Shown: positions 45,995 through 52,723 of the stretch, one piece after another
How positions within the stretch are numbered: position 1 is the first letter of the stretch
Layout of the letters: each line of letters opens with the position of its first letter
Assembly: GCA_045533905.1 (NCBI GenBank)
Contig: JAZSIR010000023.1
Location: 1-52,723 of the forward strand
Source: Clostridia bacterium
GTDB lineage: Bacteria; Bacillota; Clostridia; UMGS1883; UMGS1540
Direction: 5' to 3'
DNA length: 52,723 nt
The notes under the pieces: generated by a model
The model's input: the letters and a program-made list of their open reading frames with translations, nothing else
What the model was told of the DNA's origin: nothing
Database searches by the model: none
Translations under genes and position numbers: made by a program

Positions 45995-46024
45995 AAAAGG
46001 GTGTGACGAGAGTCACACCCTTTT
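45995..46024. terminator. Bidirectional intrinsic terminator
   Basis: AAAAGGGTGTGAC-gaga-GTCACACCCTTTT between polC and the convergent accessory operon. Confidence 0.85.
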
Positions 46025-46384
46025 AAGTTCATATTCTGCATCCAGCGTCAGCACATCGCTGTTTTGATTTGTGGTGTCTGCATTTTCCGCCACAAATACC
46101 TCGGCATCCGCAGAGAGCGCCAGATAGTGCCAGGTGCCGCGGCTCACATTGTAGGCAAAGCCCTCCGAAAGCGGCGTTTCTGTAAAATACCCGTCCTCCA
46201 TCGTCAGCATCACGGCCTCGCCTTTCAAAAGCACAAAAATTTCATCCGTTTCGTTGTGCCTTTTCATTTCCGTCACGGGGCCAAACGAATATTGCGCGCT
46301 TTTGGTTATAAAGGCGCACTTGAACCTTTCGTTTGTAAACACCGCGTCAAAGCCGGGTTTTTCTGCTTTTTTAACTGTCAGCAT
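46013..46384 (-). CDS. Cupin-fold metal-binding protein of unknown function
   Basis: RH..TDE.F.LL.G cupin motif 1 and YNV..GTWH motif 2. Confidence 0.65.
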   Translation of the reverse strand: MLTVKKAEKPGFDAVFTNERFKCAFITKSAQYSFGPVTEMKRHNETDEIFVLLKGEAVMLTMEDGYFTETPLSEGFAYNVSRGTWHYLALSADAEVFVAENADTTNQNSDVLTLDAEYELKRV

Positions 46385-46393
46385 AGCGTCCCC

Positions 46394-47650
46394 TTACTTT
46401 TCGTAGTCTAAAACTTCCCAGTCCTCCGGCGGGTTACCGAGGTCGACCACATCCATCGTCTTGCTGCCGGCCATTGCCGATTCGTGTGCCGTAAGGCCGG
46501 GGATGTTCCAGCGTGCAACTTCCCAGATGTTTGTGGGAGAGAGCTTGCCGGTTGCATATGCGCGGCAGAAATCGTCAATTAAGAAGTGATGCGTTCCGTT
46601 ATGGCCGTTTTCGATGCCTTCGTACTCTTTCGGGAGTCTCGCCGTCGGCTGAATGGGAGAGGTTTCAAAGAAGCCTGCGGTATCTGCAATTTCCTGCACG
46701 GCTTTGTCATAGTCGGAAATGATGCTGTTGTAAACACTTTCCGGCTGCAGGTCCTTTGTTACGTCCTTCATAATAACTTTGCCGGGGCGGTTTTCATCCC
46801 AATGCGCCAGGTGGTGGCGGGCAACGGCAAATTCGTAGCCACCGTCGGTGCCGTAGTACTGGGTGACATAGGTTTCAGGCGACATCCAGCCCACACATCT
46901 GTTTTCGCTGATTCTGGCAATACCGCCGTTTGAAAGCTCTACCATCATCGCGGTATTGGAGAACGGATTGTTATAGATGTTCTGGCCGTCCATACCGTAA
47001 ATGTCGGTTCGCGGGCTGCCGGCAAAGCCAAAGCCCACAACCTTTTTAACATATACGCCGGGCATTGTGGAAAGGATCATCGAGGTGGAGTGTGTGGGAT
47101 AGAACATCGGCGGAATGCCCGCAAACTTCTTCCATTCCTCTCCGCCCGAGCTTTTGAAGCTGTTTTCCATATTGCGGATATCGTGGTTATACTGCGCTTC
47201 TGCATATGTGAATTTGCCGAAGGTTCCCTTCTTGAATTCTTTTCTCAAAAAGATAGCAGGCGCTCTGTAAAAACCGGTTTCGCCCATCGAATAGGTAAGG
47301 CGGGTCTTGCGGACGAGGCTTTCGATTTCGACGAGCTCTTCCACCTTGGCGGCACCCGGAACGGCACTGTATACGTGCTTGCCGGCTTTGAGTGCCTGAA
47401 TGACAAGCGGCCCGTGCGAGGTTCGCGTTGTGAAAATAGCAACAGAGTTTACTTTATCGGAGGCAAGCGCCTCTTCAAAGCTGTCGATGATGTCCACATC
47501 AAATCTTTTCTGGAATTCTTCTGCACGCTCGCGGCGGGTGTCGCAAACATACACCTTTTCCACTTCGGGATGCGCCTTCCATAGCGGCACAAAGAACGGG
47601 CTGAATCTGCCACAGCCAATAATTGCAATTCTGATTTTTTCCTTTGCCAT
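46394..47650 (-). CDS. Gfo/Idh/MocA NAD-dependent oxidoreductase, GH109-like
   Basis: IAIIGCG Rossmann motif, H....AL.AGKHVYSAVP, YAEAQYNHD, YPTH and NGHNGTH. Confidence 0.8.
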   Translation of the reverse strand: MAKEKIRIAIIGCGRFSPFFVPLWKAHPEVEKVYVCDTRRERAEEFQKRFDVDIIDSFEEALASDKVNSVAIFTTRTSHGPLVIQALKAGKHVYSAVPGAAKVEELVEIESLVRKTRLTYSMGETGFYRAPAIFLRKEFKKGTFGKFTYAEAQYNHDIRNMENSFKSSGGEEWKKFAGIPPMFYPTHSTSMILSTMPGVYVKKVVGFGFAGSPRTDIYGMDGQNIYNNPFSNTAMMVELSNGGIARISENRCVGWMSPETYVTQYYGTDGGYEFAVARHHLAHWDENRPGKVIMKDVTKDLQPESVYNSIISDYDKAVQEIADTAGFFETSPIQPTARLPKEYEGIENGHNGTHHFLIDDFCRAYATGKLSPTNIWEVARWNIPGLTAHESAMAGSKTMDVVDLGNPPEDWEVLDYEK

Positions 47651-47652
47651 TT

Positions 47653-48642
47653 TTATCTCTCCTCTTTTTTAGGATCTGTGAAGTCCCACTCGTTTTCTCG
47701 CTTTAAGGTTTCGAACTGTTTTGTGCTCAGCTTCCAGTCCTCATCTTCACGGAATTTCCGTTTGAACTTTTTGGTGAGAAGCCCCTTCTCCTCGAGATGA
47801 ATGTAGCACGCTCTGTCGCACGCTCTTGCACAGATGGAGGTGCGGTAATAGTGCTTCGCAGGGGGGTAGAAATAGATGCTGTCTAAAATCTCCTTTGCCC
47901 CTTCTGTGTCAAATTCCGCCGTTCCGTTTATTATATCCATTCTGTTTTCGAAATCCATAAAGGCATCGGGCGGCATAAACGGGTTTTTCGAGCCGTTCGC
48001 ACCGTTATAGTAAACGGCGCAGCGCCAGGAGTCAAGCGTGCCGTCTTCCTTGATGGCTCTTCCCGGGCAAGCTTCGATGCATTTGCCGCATCTGTCGCAA
48101 AGACCTGCACCGCGCAGGGGAGAGGGCGCAATTTCCGCATCGGTTAAAATAAAGCAGTAGCGGATAAACGGGCCGTACTCCGGTGTCAGAAGAGAACCAA
48201 TCATACTCCGCTCGCCAAGGCCGCACTGAACCGCGCAATTCAAAAAGTCAATCTGATGCTCGGCTACAACGCCGCGCACAACGTCCGTATAGTCCATTTC
48301 GGGATTTGTTGCATACGGGTCGTTTACAATCAGCTGGTTCTTTCTTTGCGGCACGGCCGTAAAGCCTTCTTCCTCGATGAGGTTACTTACATTGATGAGT
48401 GCAAGCGGCATCACGGTTTCTTCAAGGTTTTCCACGCCCATCGTGGTGTACTGGTAGTACGTTGTGCCCTCTTCTGCCGTTCTGTAAATGCCGCGTAAAA
48501 CGCGAAAACCAAGGCCTACAACTGTTTTGGTTTCGGGGAAAATCTTAAAAATTTCGTCATCGGGCAAAAAACGACTTCTGTCCGCAAATCCGATAATATC
48601 CGCATCATATTTTTGCGCAAGCTCTATAATTTTGTTTTTCAT
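47653..48642 (-). CDS. QueG/reductive-dehalogenase-like cobalamin-[4Fe-4S] protein (paralog 3)
   Basis: ADIIGFA N-terminus, A..CGLGE....L.P.YGP..R...ILTD, CDRCGKCIEACP, WRC and CARACDRAC. Confidence 0.7.
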   Translation of the reverse strand: MKNKIIELAQKYDADIIGFADRSRFLPDDEIFKIFPETKTVVGLGFRVLRGIYRTAEEGTTYYQYTTMGVENLEETVMPLALINVSNLIEEEGFTAVPQRKNQLIVNDPYATNPEMDYTDVVRGVVAEHQIDFLNCAVQCGLGERSMIGSLLTPEYGPFIRYCFILTDAEIAPSPLRGAGLCDRCGKCIEACPGRAIKEDGTLDSWRCAVYYNGANGSKNPFMPPDAFMDFENRMDIINGTAEFDTEGAKEILDSIYFYPPAKHYYRTSICARACDRACYIHLEEKGLLTKKFKRKFREDEDWKLSTKQFETLKRENEWDFTDPKKEER

Positions 48643-49544
48643 ATTCTGCCCGCCTCCTTCAAATGCTTGTAGCATACAATTTCACAGCTTTTGCCGCACA
48701 GACAGGGCACATAGCCGAAGTGCGTGTTGGGCAAAAACGAAAGAGAGGGATATATTTTTTCGGCTTCCTCTTTCGTAAATTTCTTTTCGCCGCTTATAAT
48801 CGCTTCACGCTCGGGGTGGTCAGCCAGGAAATCCTCGCTCATAAACGGATTGGATTTGTGTGCCCCTCTGTAGTATACACTACATTGCCAGGTATCCACG
48901 CCGCCGCTTGCAATCGCTTTTCCGGGGCAGGCCGCCTGACACTTTCCGCACTTGTCGCAAAGGTCGCCTTCAAAAGGCGCATCAAAGTCGAGTGGCATAT
49001 CGGTAATAATATAAACAAAGCGCATAAACGTTCCGTACTTCGGCACAATCACCTTGCCGTGCAGCCCTTCTTTTCCAAGGCCGCAAACATACGCCGCCTT
49101 GTTATAGTCGATAATAACATCAGGCACGGGCTTGTCGTCACTAACGGGGCTTGCAAACTGCAACTCATAAATCCGGCTGACTTCGGGGTTCGTGGTTTTG
49201 TCACCCTTTACCTTAAAGCCCGGCACATATCTCTGGAGACACGCGTCATAGCCTTCATTTTCAATCATAGCCCCCATCTTCAGAAGAAAGATTTCAGCAA
49301 AGCTTTCGTCTATGTACTTGACGCCGAGGTTTACGTAGTTATAATACTGCGTTTTGATATCCATCGTGCCGTAGAGCCCGCGGGGCACTTTGATGCCAAA
49401 ACCGATAATGGCCTTTGCATTCGGCAGAATGGAAAACGGGTTGTGCTGCGGGTCATCACCGCGAAACATTTCAATATTCCCGATGCCGCAAAGGCTTGCA
49501 CCAAGCGCGGCGGCTTTTTCCTTTATATCTTTGGCTGTAAGCAT
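48639..49544 (-). CDS. QueG/reductive-dehalogenase-like cobalamin-[4Fe-4S] protein (paralog 2)
   Basis: LGASLCGIG, P..ILPNAKAII, CGLG..G.HG..P.YG..R...ITD, CDKCGKCQAACP, WQC and CLCGKSCEIVC; start MLTAKDIK after GGGGG. Confidence 0.7.
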   Translation of the reverse strand: MLTAKDIKEKAAALGASLCGIGNIEMFRGDDPQHNPFSILPNAKAIIGFGIKVPRGLYGTMDIKTQYYNYVNLGVKYIDESFAEIFLLKMGAMIENEGYDACLQRYVPGFKVKGDKTTNPEVSRIYELQFASPVSDDKPVPDVIIDYNKAAYVCGLGKEGLHGKVIVPKYGTFMRFVYIITDMPLDFDAPFEGDLCDKCGKCQAACPGKAIASGGVDTWQCSVYYRGAHKSNPFMSEDFLADHPEREAIISGEKKFTKEEAEKIYPSLSFLPNTHFGYVPCLCGKSCEIVCYKHLKEAGRI

Positions 49545-49555
49545 ATTCATCCCCC

Positions 49556-50635
49556 TTATCTGTCCATTTTCCAGGCTTTTTTCGTTCGCAGGGGCTCGTG
49601 GAATCTGCCTTCCATACAGCCGCCCTTTTTCTCTAAAACGCTGACGCAGGCGCGGATACATCCGCCGCATTTTGCCATATTGTAGCCCACCCAGCTCGGG
49701 AAGTACTTTTCAAGCGTCGTATACACCTTCATAATTTCTTTCTCATTTGCAACGTCTGTCTTTCCTTCTAAAAGGTCAAGCATACCGCCTTCGTTTTTGT
49801 CGAAAACCTCTTTGGGAACAAAGGGGTTATAATACCGGCCGCCGTGGGTGTAGAAGGCGTAGCAGCGCCACATATCAATGTCACCCCATTCGAGCTTTTT
49901 ACCGGCTAAGTCGACCGTGATGGTCTTGCCGGATTTAAGATCGGGGATACAGCCACCGGGACATTCTCTTACGCACGCGCCGCACTTTCTGCAAAGCGGC
50001 TCGCCCGAATACATTTCGTCATATTCGAGTTCCGCATCCGTGAAAATAAATGCGACTCTCTGGAGAGGCCCGAATTCGGGCGTAAGGAGCATTTTGCTCC
50101 AGCCGATTTCACCAAGGCCGCAGGCCACCGCTGCAATTCTGAACTGAAACTGCAAATCCGGCGGCACCTTACCTTTGGCCACCTCGCGTGTAAACTGCAC
50201 GCTTCTGTGATGCGCCGTTTTGCCCTTGGCGTGTTTGGAAACCTCAATCTGTTCCTCAGGGGAAAGGGAGTTGCCGGGGCTGCCGTCCATATCGGAAACG
50301 ATGCCTCTTGCCCCTGTGTTTCTGTATACAACCGCCTCATAGCCCTCGTCCTCAATCACTCTGCCGACGTGGTGCAAAACAGCGGGTGCGAAAATTTCGT
50401 TGATACCGCCGTATGCCATAGACGGATACTGATAAAACTGTGTACCCTCCTCAATTCCGCGCTGCACACCTCTCGGAATTCGGAAAACAAAGCCGATTAC
50501 GCTTTTGGCATTCGGAAAAAGGTAACGGGGGTCCATTTCCTTCGGTGCACCCTCAAAGCGCGACATGGGTGCGATGCCGCACTTGTCTGCCCCTGCCTCC
50601 AGTGCCGCCTTTTTGATCATCTCACTCGTTAACAT
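49556..50635 (-). CDS. QueG/reductive-dehalogenase-like cobalamin-[4Fe-4S] protein (paralog 1)
   Basis: GADKCGIA, DP..LFPNAKSVI, AAVACGLGEIGWS..LLTPEFGP.QR...FTD, CRKCGACVRECP, WRC and CGGCIRAC. Confidence 0.72.
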   Translation of the reverse strand: MLTSEMIKKAALEAGADKCGIAPMSRFEGAPKEMDPRYLFPNAKSVIGFVFRIPRGVQRGIEEGTQFYQYPSMAYGGINEIFAPAVLHHVGRVIEDEGYEAVVYRNTGARGIVSDMDGSPGNSLSPEEQIEVSKHAKGKTAHHRSVQFTREVAKGKVPPDLQFQFRIAAVACGLGEIGWSKMLLTPEFGPLQRVAFIFTDAELEYDEMYSGEPLCRKCGACVRECPGGCIPDLKSGKTITVDLAGKKLEWGDIDMWRCYAFYTHGGRYYNPFVPKEVFDKNEGGMLDLLEGKTDVANEKEIMKVYTTLEKYFPSWVGYNMAKCGGCIRACVSVLEKKGGCMEGRFHEPLRTKKAWKMDR

Positions 50636-51629
50636 ACACGTCCTCCTCCAGTTTTATAATTGCCGAATCTGCATTTGTATAGAGCAGTTTGTTATCTTTC
50701 GCTTCACTTCGGATTTTGCCATTGTCCACAATATACGGATAGAGACCCGAGGCGTGGTTCGGTTCCAGAAGGGAAAGGATATTCCCGACATATTTTTTAT
50801 CTTCTATATAGGCTCGCATAACCGCAAACGGGTCTGCACTGACGCGCGTTGCCAGCTTGAGGGAAGGGAAAAGGCCTTCGTAAAGGTGCACATCCTCAGG
50901 CCGGATAAAGCTGGACACGTCAAAGAGCTTGTAGATATTTTCGTCTTTTTTGAGAAAATCGCGGCAAACGCCGGAGAAAGCGAAGCCATTATCCATTTCG
51001 GAAATTTCGCTCTCGTGCGAAACTAAATTATCGTGAAAAACGTGCGCCGAGCAGTTGTTTAGGCAGCCGCTGTTGGCAAGCGCGTAGAGCTTTTTGCCAT
51101 TTTGGTCGCACCACTCCTTGATTTCGCGGATTTTCGTAAAGTCGCGGTTCAGCTCTCTTTTTAAGTAGAAGCTGTCAAAGTAATCCATTACATATTCCAT
51201 TCCCTCACAGCTTCCGATGGACATATTTACGGAGGCGCGCACATCCACATCTTCAAAATTTTCTTTAATAAAGCGTGCGATGAGGGGAGAGGTTGTGGTG
51301 ATACCGTTTAATATGTACTGCGTTTTCACATAGTCTGTGGTGTTACCTATTTTTTCGAAAAACGCGCGCGACTGGCTGTTTTTGCCATAGCAGGTTGCAT
51401 TGAAAAGGAGGTTTACGGGGATGCCTGCTGCCGTAAGCTTTGCAAGATCTGCCCGTTGTTTTTCGCCTGCTTCAAAGGGGAGCATATCACTTCTTTTGAG
51501 CTGATTGTTCCGGCCGTTCGGAAAGTCGCCCCACGAGAAATATACTTCGGAGATAAAGTCTTTATATCTGCATATCGCATCCACCAAACTGTCGTCTCCA
51601 AAAAGTTGATAACCGACTGAAAATTTCAT
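50622..51629 (-). CDS. U32-peptidase-like TIM-barrel Fe-S protein (putative O2-independent hydroxylase family)
   Basis: NLLFNATC, RASVN, RELNRD, LANSGCLNNC...H, FIRPED..Y and LKLATR patterns resemble a divergent U32 subfamily. Confidence 0.6.
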   Translation of the reverse strand: MKFSVGYQLFGDDSLVDAICRYKDFISEVYFSWGDFPNGRNNQLKRSDMLPFEAGEKQRADLAKLTAAGIPVNLLFNATCYGKNSQSRAFFEKIGNTTDYVKTQYILNGITTTSPLIARFIKENFEDVDVRASVNMSIGSCEGMEYVMDYFDSFYLKRELNRDFTKIREIKEWCDQNGKKLYALANSGCLNNCSAHVFHDNLVSHESEISEMDNGFAFSGVCRDFLKKDENIYKLFDVSSFIRPEDVHLYEGLFPSLKLATRVSADPFAVMRAYIEDKKYVGNILSLLEPNHASGLYPYIVDNGKIRSEAKDNKLLYTNADSAIIKLEEDVYVNE

Positions 51630-51646
51630 ATTGCACCTCCTTATGC

Positions 51647-51675
51647 TTGACTATAGCACAAAGTGGTGCTATAAT
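51647..51675. promoter_or_regulatory. Overlapping divergent promoters of araC and the operon
   Basis: Plus strand TTGACT-17 bp-TATAAT with TG extension; minus strand extended -10 TGCTATAGT; together they form TATAGCAC-N6-GTGCTATA. Confidence 0.6.
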
Positions 51676-51723
51676 GTATTAAAAAATCAGCAAAAAATAT
51701 AACAAAACAAAGAAGGATGCAAA

Positions 51724-52572
51724 ATGAAAGTTTCAGATATCAACCCGCATATCCGCTACTGCAAGGCACACTTGGCACCCACAAATACAGTGCGAACCAG
51801 CGTTTGCTATGACTGCAGAATCTTCTATATGGAAACGGCTGCGGGCCATGTGCTCATCAATGGTGTGAAATATAACTTTTCAAACGGCGATATGGTGTAT
51901 CTTCCTCCCCAAACCCACTACCGCTTCACCTTCAGCCCGTGCGAAAAATTCAAGATTGCGGTACTGGACTTTGACCTTGTGAATGATTTTTCAGACAGGA
52001 AAGAATCCCTCGGCACCGCAACGGAAGAAAGCTTTTGCCCCGATATGGTACCGGACTATGCGCTTTGTGCAGAACTTTCCGAGCCGATTATCCGAAATAT
52101 GCCAAAGCTCGCCTCAGCCATTTCGGAGAGTGCGGACGGCTTTTTAAAAAAGCCTTTATTCTATCGGGAACGCGCTTCGGCGATGCTGAAGCTCTGCCTT
52201 CTGGAGCTGGTGCAGAAGAACACGATGAACAGCCCGTACTCCCAGCTTTGCGAAAGCGTGCTTTCTTATATTCACGAAAACTACGCCGATCCCACGCTAA
52301 CAAACGAAATCATTGCAAAAAAGTTCAATTATCATCCGTATCACTTAAGCCGGATTATCAGACAGGAAACCGGCAGAACCCTGCATCAGTACCTTGCATA
52401 TTACCGCGTGCACATCGCAAAAAATCTTCTGGTAACTACGGAATATGACATCGAGGAAATTGCCTGGAGAGCCGGCTTTTCCTCTGCCGCTTATTTCATT
52501 AAAACCTTCCGGACTGATACAACGATGACCCCGAAAAAATACAGAAACCTGCATTTTCATATTGAACTATGA
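51724..52572 (+). CDS. AraC family transcriptional regulator
   Basis: N-terminal cupin-like sensor domain; C-terminal double HTH (YIHENY, LSRI.RQETG, IA..AGFSSAAYF.K.FR...MTP..YR). Confidence 0.93.
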   Translation: MKVSDINPHIRYCKAHLAPTNTVRTSVCYDCRIFYMETAAGHVLINGVKYNFSNGDMVYLPPQTHYRFTFSPCEKFKIAVLDFDLVNDFSDRKESLGTATEESFCPDMVPDYALCAELSEPIIRNMPKLASAISESADGFLKKPLFYRERASAMLKLCLLELVQKNTMNSPYSQLCESVLSYIHENYADPTLTNEIIAKKFNYHPYHLSRIIRQETGRTLHQYLAYYRVHIAKNLLVTTEYDIEEIAWRAGFSSAAYFIKTFRTDTTMTPKKYRNLHFHIEL

Positions 52573-52586
52573 AAAGCACCGACTTT

Positions 52587-52723
52587 TGAACAAGTCCAGT
52601 AAAAACGGACAATAGAAAAAAAGCACCTCCTATGGTAGAATAAAAATACCATAGGAGGTTTTGTTATGTCAGGAATTAAAGGAATGAAAAAGTATCCACA
52701 AGGAATTAGAGAAAAGATTGTAT
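52587..52723 (+). mobile_element. Probable left end of an IS3/IS150-family insertion sequence (truncated by the window edge)
   Basis: TG-initiated terminal-IR-like sequence TGAACAAGTCCAGTAAAAACGGACA, an RBS-occluding 13-bp hairpin, and an ORF start resembling an OrfA HTH; the right end and catalytic domain are not in the window. Confidence 0.5.
52666..52723 (+). CDS. Partial ORF, probable IS3-family OrfA (MSGIKGMKKYPQGIREKIV...)
   Basis: ATG after AGGAGG; the KY....R..IV pattern resembles OrfA N-termini; only 19 codons visible. Confidence 0.45.
   Translation, partial: MSGIKGMKKYPQGIREKIV

Follow-up and report, generated by a model that had tools for sequence, protein, structure and literature searches.

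Our analysis concerns a 52,723-nucleotide (nt) stretch from a Clostridia bacterium (assembly GCA_045533905.1, contig JAZSIR010000023.1, positions 1 to 52,723, forward strand), referred to in full as the window. An operon in the window encodes a U32-fold TIM-barrel protein (the barrel), three paralogs with the QueG/RdhA fold (Q1, Q2, and Q3), a Gfo/Idh/MocA oxidoreductase (Gfo), and a small cupin, and it lies next to a divergent gene for an AraC-family regulator. We find that the conserved unit, which recurs in uncultured gut anaerobes of several phyla, comprises four genes, the barrel and Q1–Q3, and not six; Gfo and the cupin are accessory and lineage-specific, and the six-gene pathway envisaged in the initial annotation is one lineage's version of this four-gene core. 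Co-occurrence and predicted folds bear out the idea of a dedicated, recurrent, AraC-linked module that combines a U32-fold protein with three class III B12-fold iron-sulfur (Fe-S) proteins. Its parts belong to known superfamilies; when tested for membership in QueG, RdhA, the characterised U32 hydroxylases, and GH109, they fall outside these families. With moderate confidence we propose that the four core genes encode one inducible, cytoplasmic cobamide/Fe-S reductase system, which would cleave a C–O bond in a glycan-derived modified sugar.

A Four-gene Core Recurs across Genera

A scan of species genomes with the barrel returned 80 loci from Clostridia, Kiritimatiellae, Lentisphaeria, Opitutales, and Planctomycetes. 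The Q1-Q2-Q3 triple is present in 42 of them (41 counted by script plus locus L050, in which Q2 falls just under the identity cut), part of the triple in 6 (at contig ends or with broken genes), and one or two other Q relatives in 22. The other 10 contain no Q gene within the examined stretch, and four of five such genomes checked have the triple elsewhere. All six genes occur together in 5 of the 80 loci; recurrence across genera, which the initial annotation had proposed as a check, is seen for the four-gene core.

Q and barrel genes are found in the same 14 of 41 related genomes. In an even sample of the class Clostridia, Q was detected in 27 of 301 genomes (1e-40) and the barrel family in 24 of 300 (E below 1e-110), and all 24 barrel-bearing genomes are among the 27 with Q; these co-occurrence figures are counts, not a statistical test, and the related genomes are not independent. 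In the three genomes that have Q but no barrel, the Q genes are of a separate, two-gene type. A two-gene Q type stands under AraC or LacI regulators in L119, L120, L121, L122, and L099, in genomes without the U32-like family. At 90% clustering the barrel has 4119 relatives and Q1 has 2530, with no informative name among the matches listed. Within the genus the module is patchy (4 of 8 other genomes).

The same genome contains a second pair of a single Q and a U32-like gene (G000:C1:80014-85252; L001:8006-13252), downstream of genes for a beta-helix protein and a glycoside hydrolase (GH) of family GH39; the pair is ∼40% identical to its counterparts in the window. Each of the two Q sets of this genome is accompanied by a U32-like gene of its own. 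Other versions of the module add DUF5696, a serine hydrolase, a sodium symporter, or a radical S-adenosylmethionine (SAM)/SPASM protein. The radical SAM/SPASM gene lies in or beside the module in L017, L018, L023, L105, L109, and L123 and has no close copy in this genome; for the three proteins tested, the best model was TIGR04317 (tungsten-oxidoreductase maturase), below its cut-off.

Q1–Q3 Are Predicted to Share the Class III B12 Fold and Differ from QueG and RdhA

The predicted structure of Q1 (predicted local distance difference test score (pLDDT) 86.4, with residues 109-148 poorly predicted) matches PceA, NpRdhA, and QueG equally well (Z 15-16; Foldseek E 4e-9 to 8e-7). It shares the core fold of the PceA and NpRdhA structures (4uqu, 8q4h, and 4ras; Z ∼16, root mean square deviation (r.m.s.d.) 3.1-3.6) and aligns with QueG (5d08, 5d6s, and 5t8y; Z 15-15.8, ∼210 residues) over QueG residues 1-254 alone, which comprise the B12 and ferredoxin domains, and without the C-terminal helical tRNA-binding domain. 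A structure was predicted for Q1, and Q2 and Q3 were placed in the fold by homology. Both are shorter than Q1 and 33-35% identical to it; Q2 matches QueG and PceA in the PDB at E 1e-7, and Q3 matches the same entries. The class III domain layout, a nitroreductase-type B12 domain plus a two-cluster ferredoxin domain, is found in Q1 by model and in Q2 and Q3 by homology. An eight-cysteine motif for two [4Fe-4S] clusters is present in 43/43 Q1, 40/43 Q2, and 39/40 Q3 sequences and is identical to the motif given for QueG in PMC5175355; its seventh cysteine is varied in many single-Q relatives. Class III enzymes have no diagnostic B12-binding sequence motif, according to PMC4646009.

Family scans of the operon proteins returned ferredoxin motifs, and membership in QueG and in RdhA was rejected. 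Q1, Q2, and Q3 score 26.6, 43.8, and 39.4 bits with the QueG model TIGR00276, far below its cut-off of 200, and the DYH motif of QueG (PMC4646009) occurs in 0 of 153 Q sequences. Their best NCBIfam match is the RdhA model TIGR02486 (41.2, 49.3, and 49.7 bits), again far below the cut-off of 160. The twin-arginine translocation (Tat) motif RR-x-FLK is found in the first 40 residues of 0 of the 153 sequences, and there is no RdhB anchor or fused reductase in the operon or among the 259 neighbours scanned, a selection from all neighbouring genes called that includes some repeat scans. The earlier label of three QueG-like B12/Fe-S paralogs is upheld for predicted fold and cluster motif but not for membership in either family. 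A catabolic reductive dehalogenase for halogenated natural products would fit the RdhA structures tying for the best fold match and the top rank of TIGR02486; given the low bit scores, the missing Tat signal and anchor, and the sugar-gene context described below, we regard it as very unlikely. The Q proteins are also shorter than PceA and NpRdhA and are paired with a U32-fold protein.

Residue conservation sets Q1 apart from its paralogs. By sequence alignment, Arg-166 of Q1 corresponds to Arg-141 of QueG, which blocks the lower cobalamin face, and the Q1 motif YRNTG (N106-T-G; 42/43) sits at the position of Asp-134 in QueG and Asn-272 in PceA, so that Q1 has an asparagine like PceA there. Q1 is distinguished from QueG by a conserved insert of ∼50 residues after the Asp-134 position. 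In Q2 and Q3, the Arg-141 and Asp-134 positions are occupied by different residues, which vary among sequences. Compared with the window copy, Q1 has a mean identity of 81%, Q2 of 62%, and Q3 of 61%. A quick tree was built from 90 rows, comprising every single-Q row and 19 of the type-A loci; in it the three form separate, supported, old clades, with support of 99 for Q2 and 96 for Q3. Gene order is Q1-Q2-Q3 in 40 of 40 complete triples; Q2 and Q3 nearly always overlap or abut, in most of the 40 loci by a 4-nt ATGA-type overlap. Natural fusions of two Q domains (740-770 amino acids (aa)) are encoded in L063:6193-8421, L080:6778-9006, and L125:6548-8860, and in L063 and L080 the fusion gene is followed by a further Q gene and a U32-like gene.

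Because only Q1 keeps residues matching those at the cobalamin faces of QueG and is the most conserved of the three, Q1 is likely the catalytic, cobamide-binding subunit, and Q2 and Q3 are likely its partner subunits. The initial annotation had proposed B12-dependent reductive steps; the three paralogs resemble unequal subunits of a single enzyme more than catalysts of three consecutive reductions. QueG, in contrast, is a monomer, whereas the module encodes three unequal paralogs and is accessory and AraC-linked.

The Barrel Has a Predicted U32 Fold and Diverges from U32 Hydroxylases

By sequence the barrel is a weak match to U32 (PF01136; E 0.058, 13.1 bits, cut-off 22.4), and 13 of 140 family members match PF01136 at E 0.01. 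Its predicted structure (pLDDT 93.5) is closest to the U32 protein Mk0906 (5d88; Foldseek E 3.4e-11, Z 18.7, r.m.s.d. 3.3 over 225 residues), with the next barrel at Z 12.2. Invariant in 140 barrel sequences are Cys-80, Cys-189, Cys-193, Cys-222, His-199, Asp-200, His-205, Lys-258, Arg-262, and Glu-289. The four cysteines are likely an Fe-S site, as they fit the one in UbiU/UbiV, and one of them lies far upstream as in UbiV (PMC6747719). Their spacing, C-x108-C-x3-C-x28-C, differs from that of known U32 proteins, and the partner of the barrel is a B12-fold protein. A glutamate and a C-x6-C motif (Glu-161/Cys-169/Cys-176) are essential in RlhA and TrhP, as stated in PMC5727448 and PMC6599085. 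The canonical E-x7-C-x6-C pattern is found in just 9 of the 140 barrel sequences, where its column is not conserved, and 138 of the 140 have KLATR in place of KIEGR; both motifs are present in the two canonical U32 proteins of the same genome, and a profile comparison between one of these and the barrel family gave nothing significant. By these sequence features the barrel falls outside the characterised U32 hydroxylases (RlhA, TrhP, and UbiU). The predicted fold supports the earlier U32-like label, and the hydroxylation step attached to it is one possible role, the barrel lacking the motifs of the characterised enzymes.

Genetic linkage is compatible with more than one role. The barrel gene can be unlinked from the triple, and in G043 and G255 one barrel copy accompanies two Q1 sets (a second copy may be hidden in these incomplete assemblies); both features would suit a helper role. 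A third apparent case of sharing, in G013, was dropped, as the second set there is of the two-Q type, which is found without U32 in G069, G134, and G216. Hydroxylation by the barrel, on the other hand, would be suited by the one barrel that the genome keeps per Q type and by the distant relatives found in biosynthetic clusters. These distant U32-like proteins carry N-x-x-C-x3-C and occur in L115, L116, L117, and L118, in apparent biosynthetic clusters with radical SAM, B12-radical SAM, AMP-binding, O-methyltransferase, and 3-deoxy-D-arabino-heptulosonate 7-phosphate (DAHP) synthase genes.

We accordingly considered a coupled oxidation-reduction, in which the barrel would be a prephenate-dependent, O2-independent hydroxylase of a small molecule and the Q proteins would accept its electrons or perform later reductions. 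The U32 fold with four invariant cysteines, the one U32-like gene per Q set in this genome, and the O-methyltransferase and DAHP synthase genes adjoining the barrel relative in L116 are in line with such a scheme. So is the electron acceptor needed by the proposed U32 mechanism, the identity of which is given as not known in PMC10990095. The absence of the hydroxylase motifs, the negative profile comparison, and the unlinked or shared barrel genes argue against it, and aroC, found in 29 of 29 module-positive genomes, is also present in 31 of 34 module-negative ones. We rate this explanation as possible but rather unlikely.

The barrel of the window (50625-50720) lacks a C-terminal cysteine cluster that 26 of 43 type-A relatives and all 22 of the single-Q type possess. 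A search for U32-Q fusions returned one long match, a histidine-kinase fusion, which is weak evidence of absence, and the longer representatives examined are unrelated fusions or likely chimeras. Matches in the ESM Atlas were confined to unnamed clusters, with U32 annotated on 14-20% of members.

Gfo and the Cupin Are Accessory

Gfo contains the PF01408 Rossmann domain (E 2.4e-19, 70.7 bits, cut-off 24), which it shares with DgpA (7xr9) and GH109 enzymes (2ixa and 6t2b), and is otherwise a distant relative of both. It had been described as GH109-like, and its YPTH and H-x-G-x-H motifs are ones that we take to resemble those of GH109; membership was rejected, since Glyco_hydro_109_C (PF21252) scores 16 bits against a cut-off of 27 and DgpA is the best PDB match by profile (E 3e-21), with GH109 2ixa ranking fifth (E 5e-13). 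Gfo is likely an oxidoreductase of the glycoside 3-dehydrogenase type. An ortholog is present in 13 of 13 triple-bearing genomes among the 41 close relatives, and in the wider set it adjoins 9 of 41 triples; of 20 genomes that carry the triple but are less closely related, 11 lack a Gfo match at 1e-40. These counts do not agree with six genes forming one fixed pathway. The cupin (Cupin_2, E 4.7e-6) has the uncharacterised CA_C3497 (3d0j, E 9e-8) as its nearest solved structure, and its position in the operon varies among related loci. A paralog 40% identical to it lies directly after iscS-like and nifU-like genes elsewhere in the genome (G000:C2:24746-26881; L003:6747-8882).

Genomic Context Points to Sugar-linked Catabolism

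In related loci, the neighbours scanned include GH39, GH29, GH27, GH20, GH26, GH36, GH2, GH106, DUF5696, CBM9, carbohydrate esterases, uxaC, sugar symporters, and AraC/LacI regulators. The patchy presence of the module, its AraC/LacI-type regulators, and the many glycoside hydrolases, esterases, and sugar enzymes nearby point to a probable inducible, sugar-linked catabolism, and not to queuosine. MetH is encoded in the host genome, in which a cobalamin-riboswitch-like element (G000:C22:20918-21098; L084; 30.7 bits, just under the cut-off of 31.5, and cut by a contig end) lies upstream of genes resembling those of energy-coupling factor (ECF) transporters; MetH and this element make cobamide availability in the host plausible.

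Queuosine had been named as one speculative substrate. In such a scheme the Q proteins would replace QueG in queuosine synthesis or salvage, or act in another RNA modification, with the barrel hydroxylating RNA. Homology to QueG and to RlhA/TrhP-type proteins agrees with it, and the genome has tgt and queA, with QueH not found. We consider it extremely unlikely: DYH and the tRNA-binding domain are missing, the QueG model scores are low, a separate short QueG-like gene is present on contig C23 (51 bits, itself below the cut-off), the genome has its two canonical U32 genes, and patchy presence with AraC linkage is unlike housekeeping RNA enzymes.

Demethylation or dealkylation of an O-methyl sugar or other methylated compound, by which Co(I) in Q1 would take the alkyl group, much as in corrinoid methyltransferases or the B12-processing enzyme CblC, and the barrel would bind the substrate, was weighed as well. 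Methylated sugars are common in plant glycans, the Q1 model also matches CblC/MMACHC (Z 8-9), and the neighbours include carbohydrate esterases, uxaC, and a gene resembling uroporphyrinogen decarboxylase (URO-D; L066 and L069). The URO-D-like genes are confined to these two related loci, the neighbours scanned show neither a methyl-acceptor methyltransferase nor a corrinoid activator that accompanies the core, and our literature search gave no precedent for sugars. We regard this alternative as improbable.

Locus Layout and Transcription Signals

The features of the locus are listed in Table 1. Re-reading the coordinates from the sequence confirmed six co-oriented genes and, from the U32-like gene to the cupin, the five junctions as first described: a 14-nt overlap, an 11-nt gap, an ATGA overlap, a 2-nt gap, and a 9-nt gap. 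The start of Q2 is ambiguous; a second ATG at 49550 would reduce the Q1-Q2 gap from 11 to 5 nt. No transporter or B12-synthesis gene is found within the operon, as the initial annotation had stated.

Table 1. Positions in the window of the module genes and their transcription signals
Feature	Positions	Strand	Length	Remarks
U32-fold TIM-barrel protein (P0001)	50622-51629	-	335 aa	core member
Q1, QueG/RdhA-fold protein (P0002)	49556-50635	-	359 aa	
Q2, second paralog (P0003)	48639-49544	-	301 aa	
Q3, third paralog (P0004)	47653-48642	-	329 aa	
Gfo/Idh/MocA NAD-dependent oxidoreductase (P0005)	46394-47650	-	418 aa	accessory
Small cupin (P0006)	46013-46384	-	123 aa	accessory
AraC-family regulator (P0007)	51724-52572	+	282 aa	divergent
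Divergent promoter region	51630-51723		94 nt	back-to-back -10-like hexamers and a degenerate 21-bp-spaced direct repeat
Hairpin with A/T tails	45995-46024		13 bp	likely bidirectional terminator shared with polC; folds on both strands

The hairpin, which forms the boundary between the operon and polC, is perfect over 13 bp and has a predicted stability of about -22 kcal/mol (z -6.0 and -5.7 for the two strands; 0 of 200 shuffles as stable), in agreement with the shared bidirectional terminator proposed earlier. It is absent from the output of a simple terminator scan. The last codons and the stop codon of the cupin gene (46013-46024) make up one arm.

The regulator contains the C-terminal double helix-turn-helix (HTH) of the AraC family (HTH_18, E 5.7e-22, 78.3 bits, cut-off 33.6; HTH_AraC is also matched). 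The cupin-type sensor domain that had been assigned to its N terminus gives a weak match only (ARD, E 0.012). In many related loci, too, the module lies next to an AraC gene. Sigma70-like sites are present on both strands of the intergenic region, and 20 hand-picked related loci have a similar promoter layout. In 21 promoter regions the 21-bp-spaced repeat is found again, preceding an extended -10, and the repeat score is maximal at a spacing of 21, the motif having been derived from the sequences on which it was scored, which makes the score partly circular; the repeat may be an AraC site. Beyond the regulator gene, an open reading frame starting at the contig end (52667-52723), with a short inverted repeat before it near 52630-52660, gives the impression of a possible 5' part of an insertion-sequence gene.

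Discussion

In the reductase system that we favour, electrons from the two [4Fe-4S] clusters of Q1 would bring a base-off cobamide to the Co(I) state, and Co(I) would attack the substrate as in QueG. Q2 and Q3, which keep the cluster motifs and not the cobalamin-face residues of Q1, would be structural or electron-relay subunits of a heteromer, and the U32-fold Fe-S protein would be a dedicated partner of Q1-type enzymes, either in activation and maturation or in an oxidative half-reaction. Gfo and the cupin may prepare the substrate in those lineages that have them.

Several points weigh against this proposal. Cobamide binding by the Q proteins is predicted from their fold, and the residue mapping of Q1 was made by sequence, with model residues 109-148 poor. 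The conserved active-site tyrosine of class III enzymes cannot be placed in Q1: Tyr-70 and Tyr-75 are invariant in Q1 and its single-Q relatives, and an ungapped count from Tyr-246 of PceA lands on Glu-80, leaving Tyr-75 or Glu-80 as candidates. Because the family includes versions with one or two Q proteins, it does not depend on three subunits. The neighbours converge on no single sugar, and many are housekeeping genes. Neither MetH (31 of 32 module-positive compared with 30 of 34 module-negative genomes) nor aroC discriminates between genomes with and without the module.

An extension of our proposal, which we offer tentatively and think doubtful, is that class III B12 enzymes have, besides RdhA and QueG, a third functional branch, which the module represents: a heteromeric cobamide/Fe-S sugar-catabolic reductase coupled physically and electronically to a U32-fold protein. 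The U32 partner would then carry out an O2-independent oxidation or hydroxylation, and the cobamide subunits would receive its electrons. To our knowledge, only dehalogenation and epoxyqueuosine reduction are established for class III B12 enzymes. Further class III families may exist and redox partners are little known, as stated in PMC4646009. We found no paper on the combination of a U32-fold protein with Q proteins in the openly accessible literature searched, in accord with the earlier view that no characterised pathway has this combination; U32 is not mentioned in the accessible part of a cold-seep survey of RdhA-like proteins (PMC12219181).

The module unites the U32 and class III B12 folds in a strongly co-occurring unit, which 24 of the 300 Clostridia genomes sampled possess, as do several PVC (Planctomycetes-Verrucomicrobia-Chlamydiae) lineages. 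If the third-branch extension is true, U32 chemistry would gain the electron acceptor that it has lacked and class III enzymes their missing redox partner, and about 1 in 12 of the sampled Clostridia genomes would have such a system. With its small soluble proteins, its regulator, and natural one-, two-, and three-Q-domain variants, the module makes new anaerobic gut B12 chemistry directly testable.

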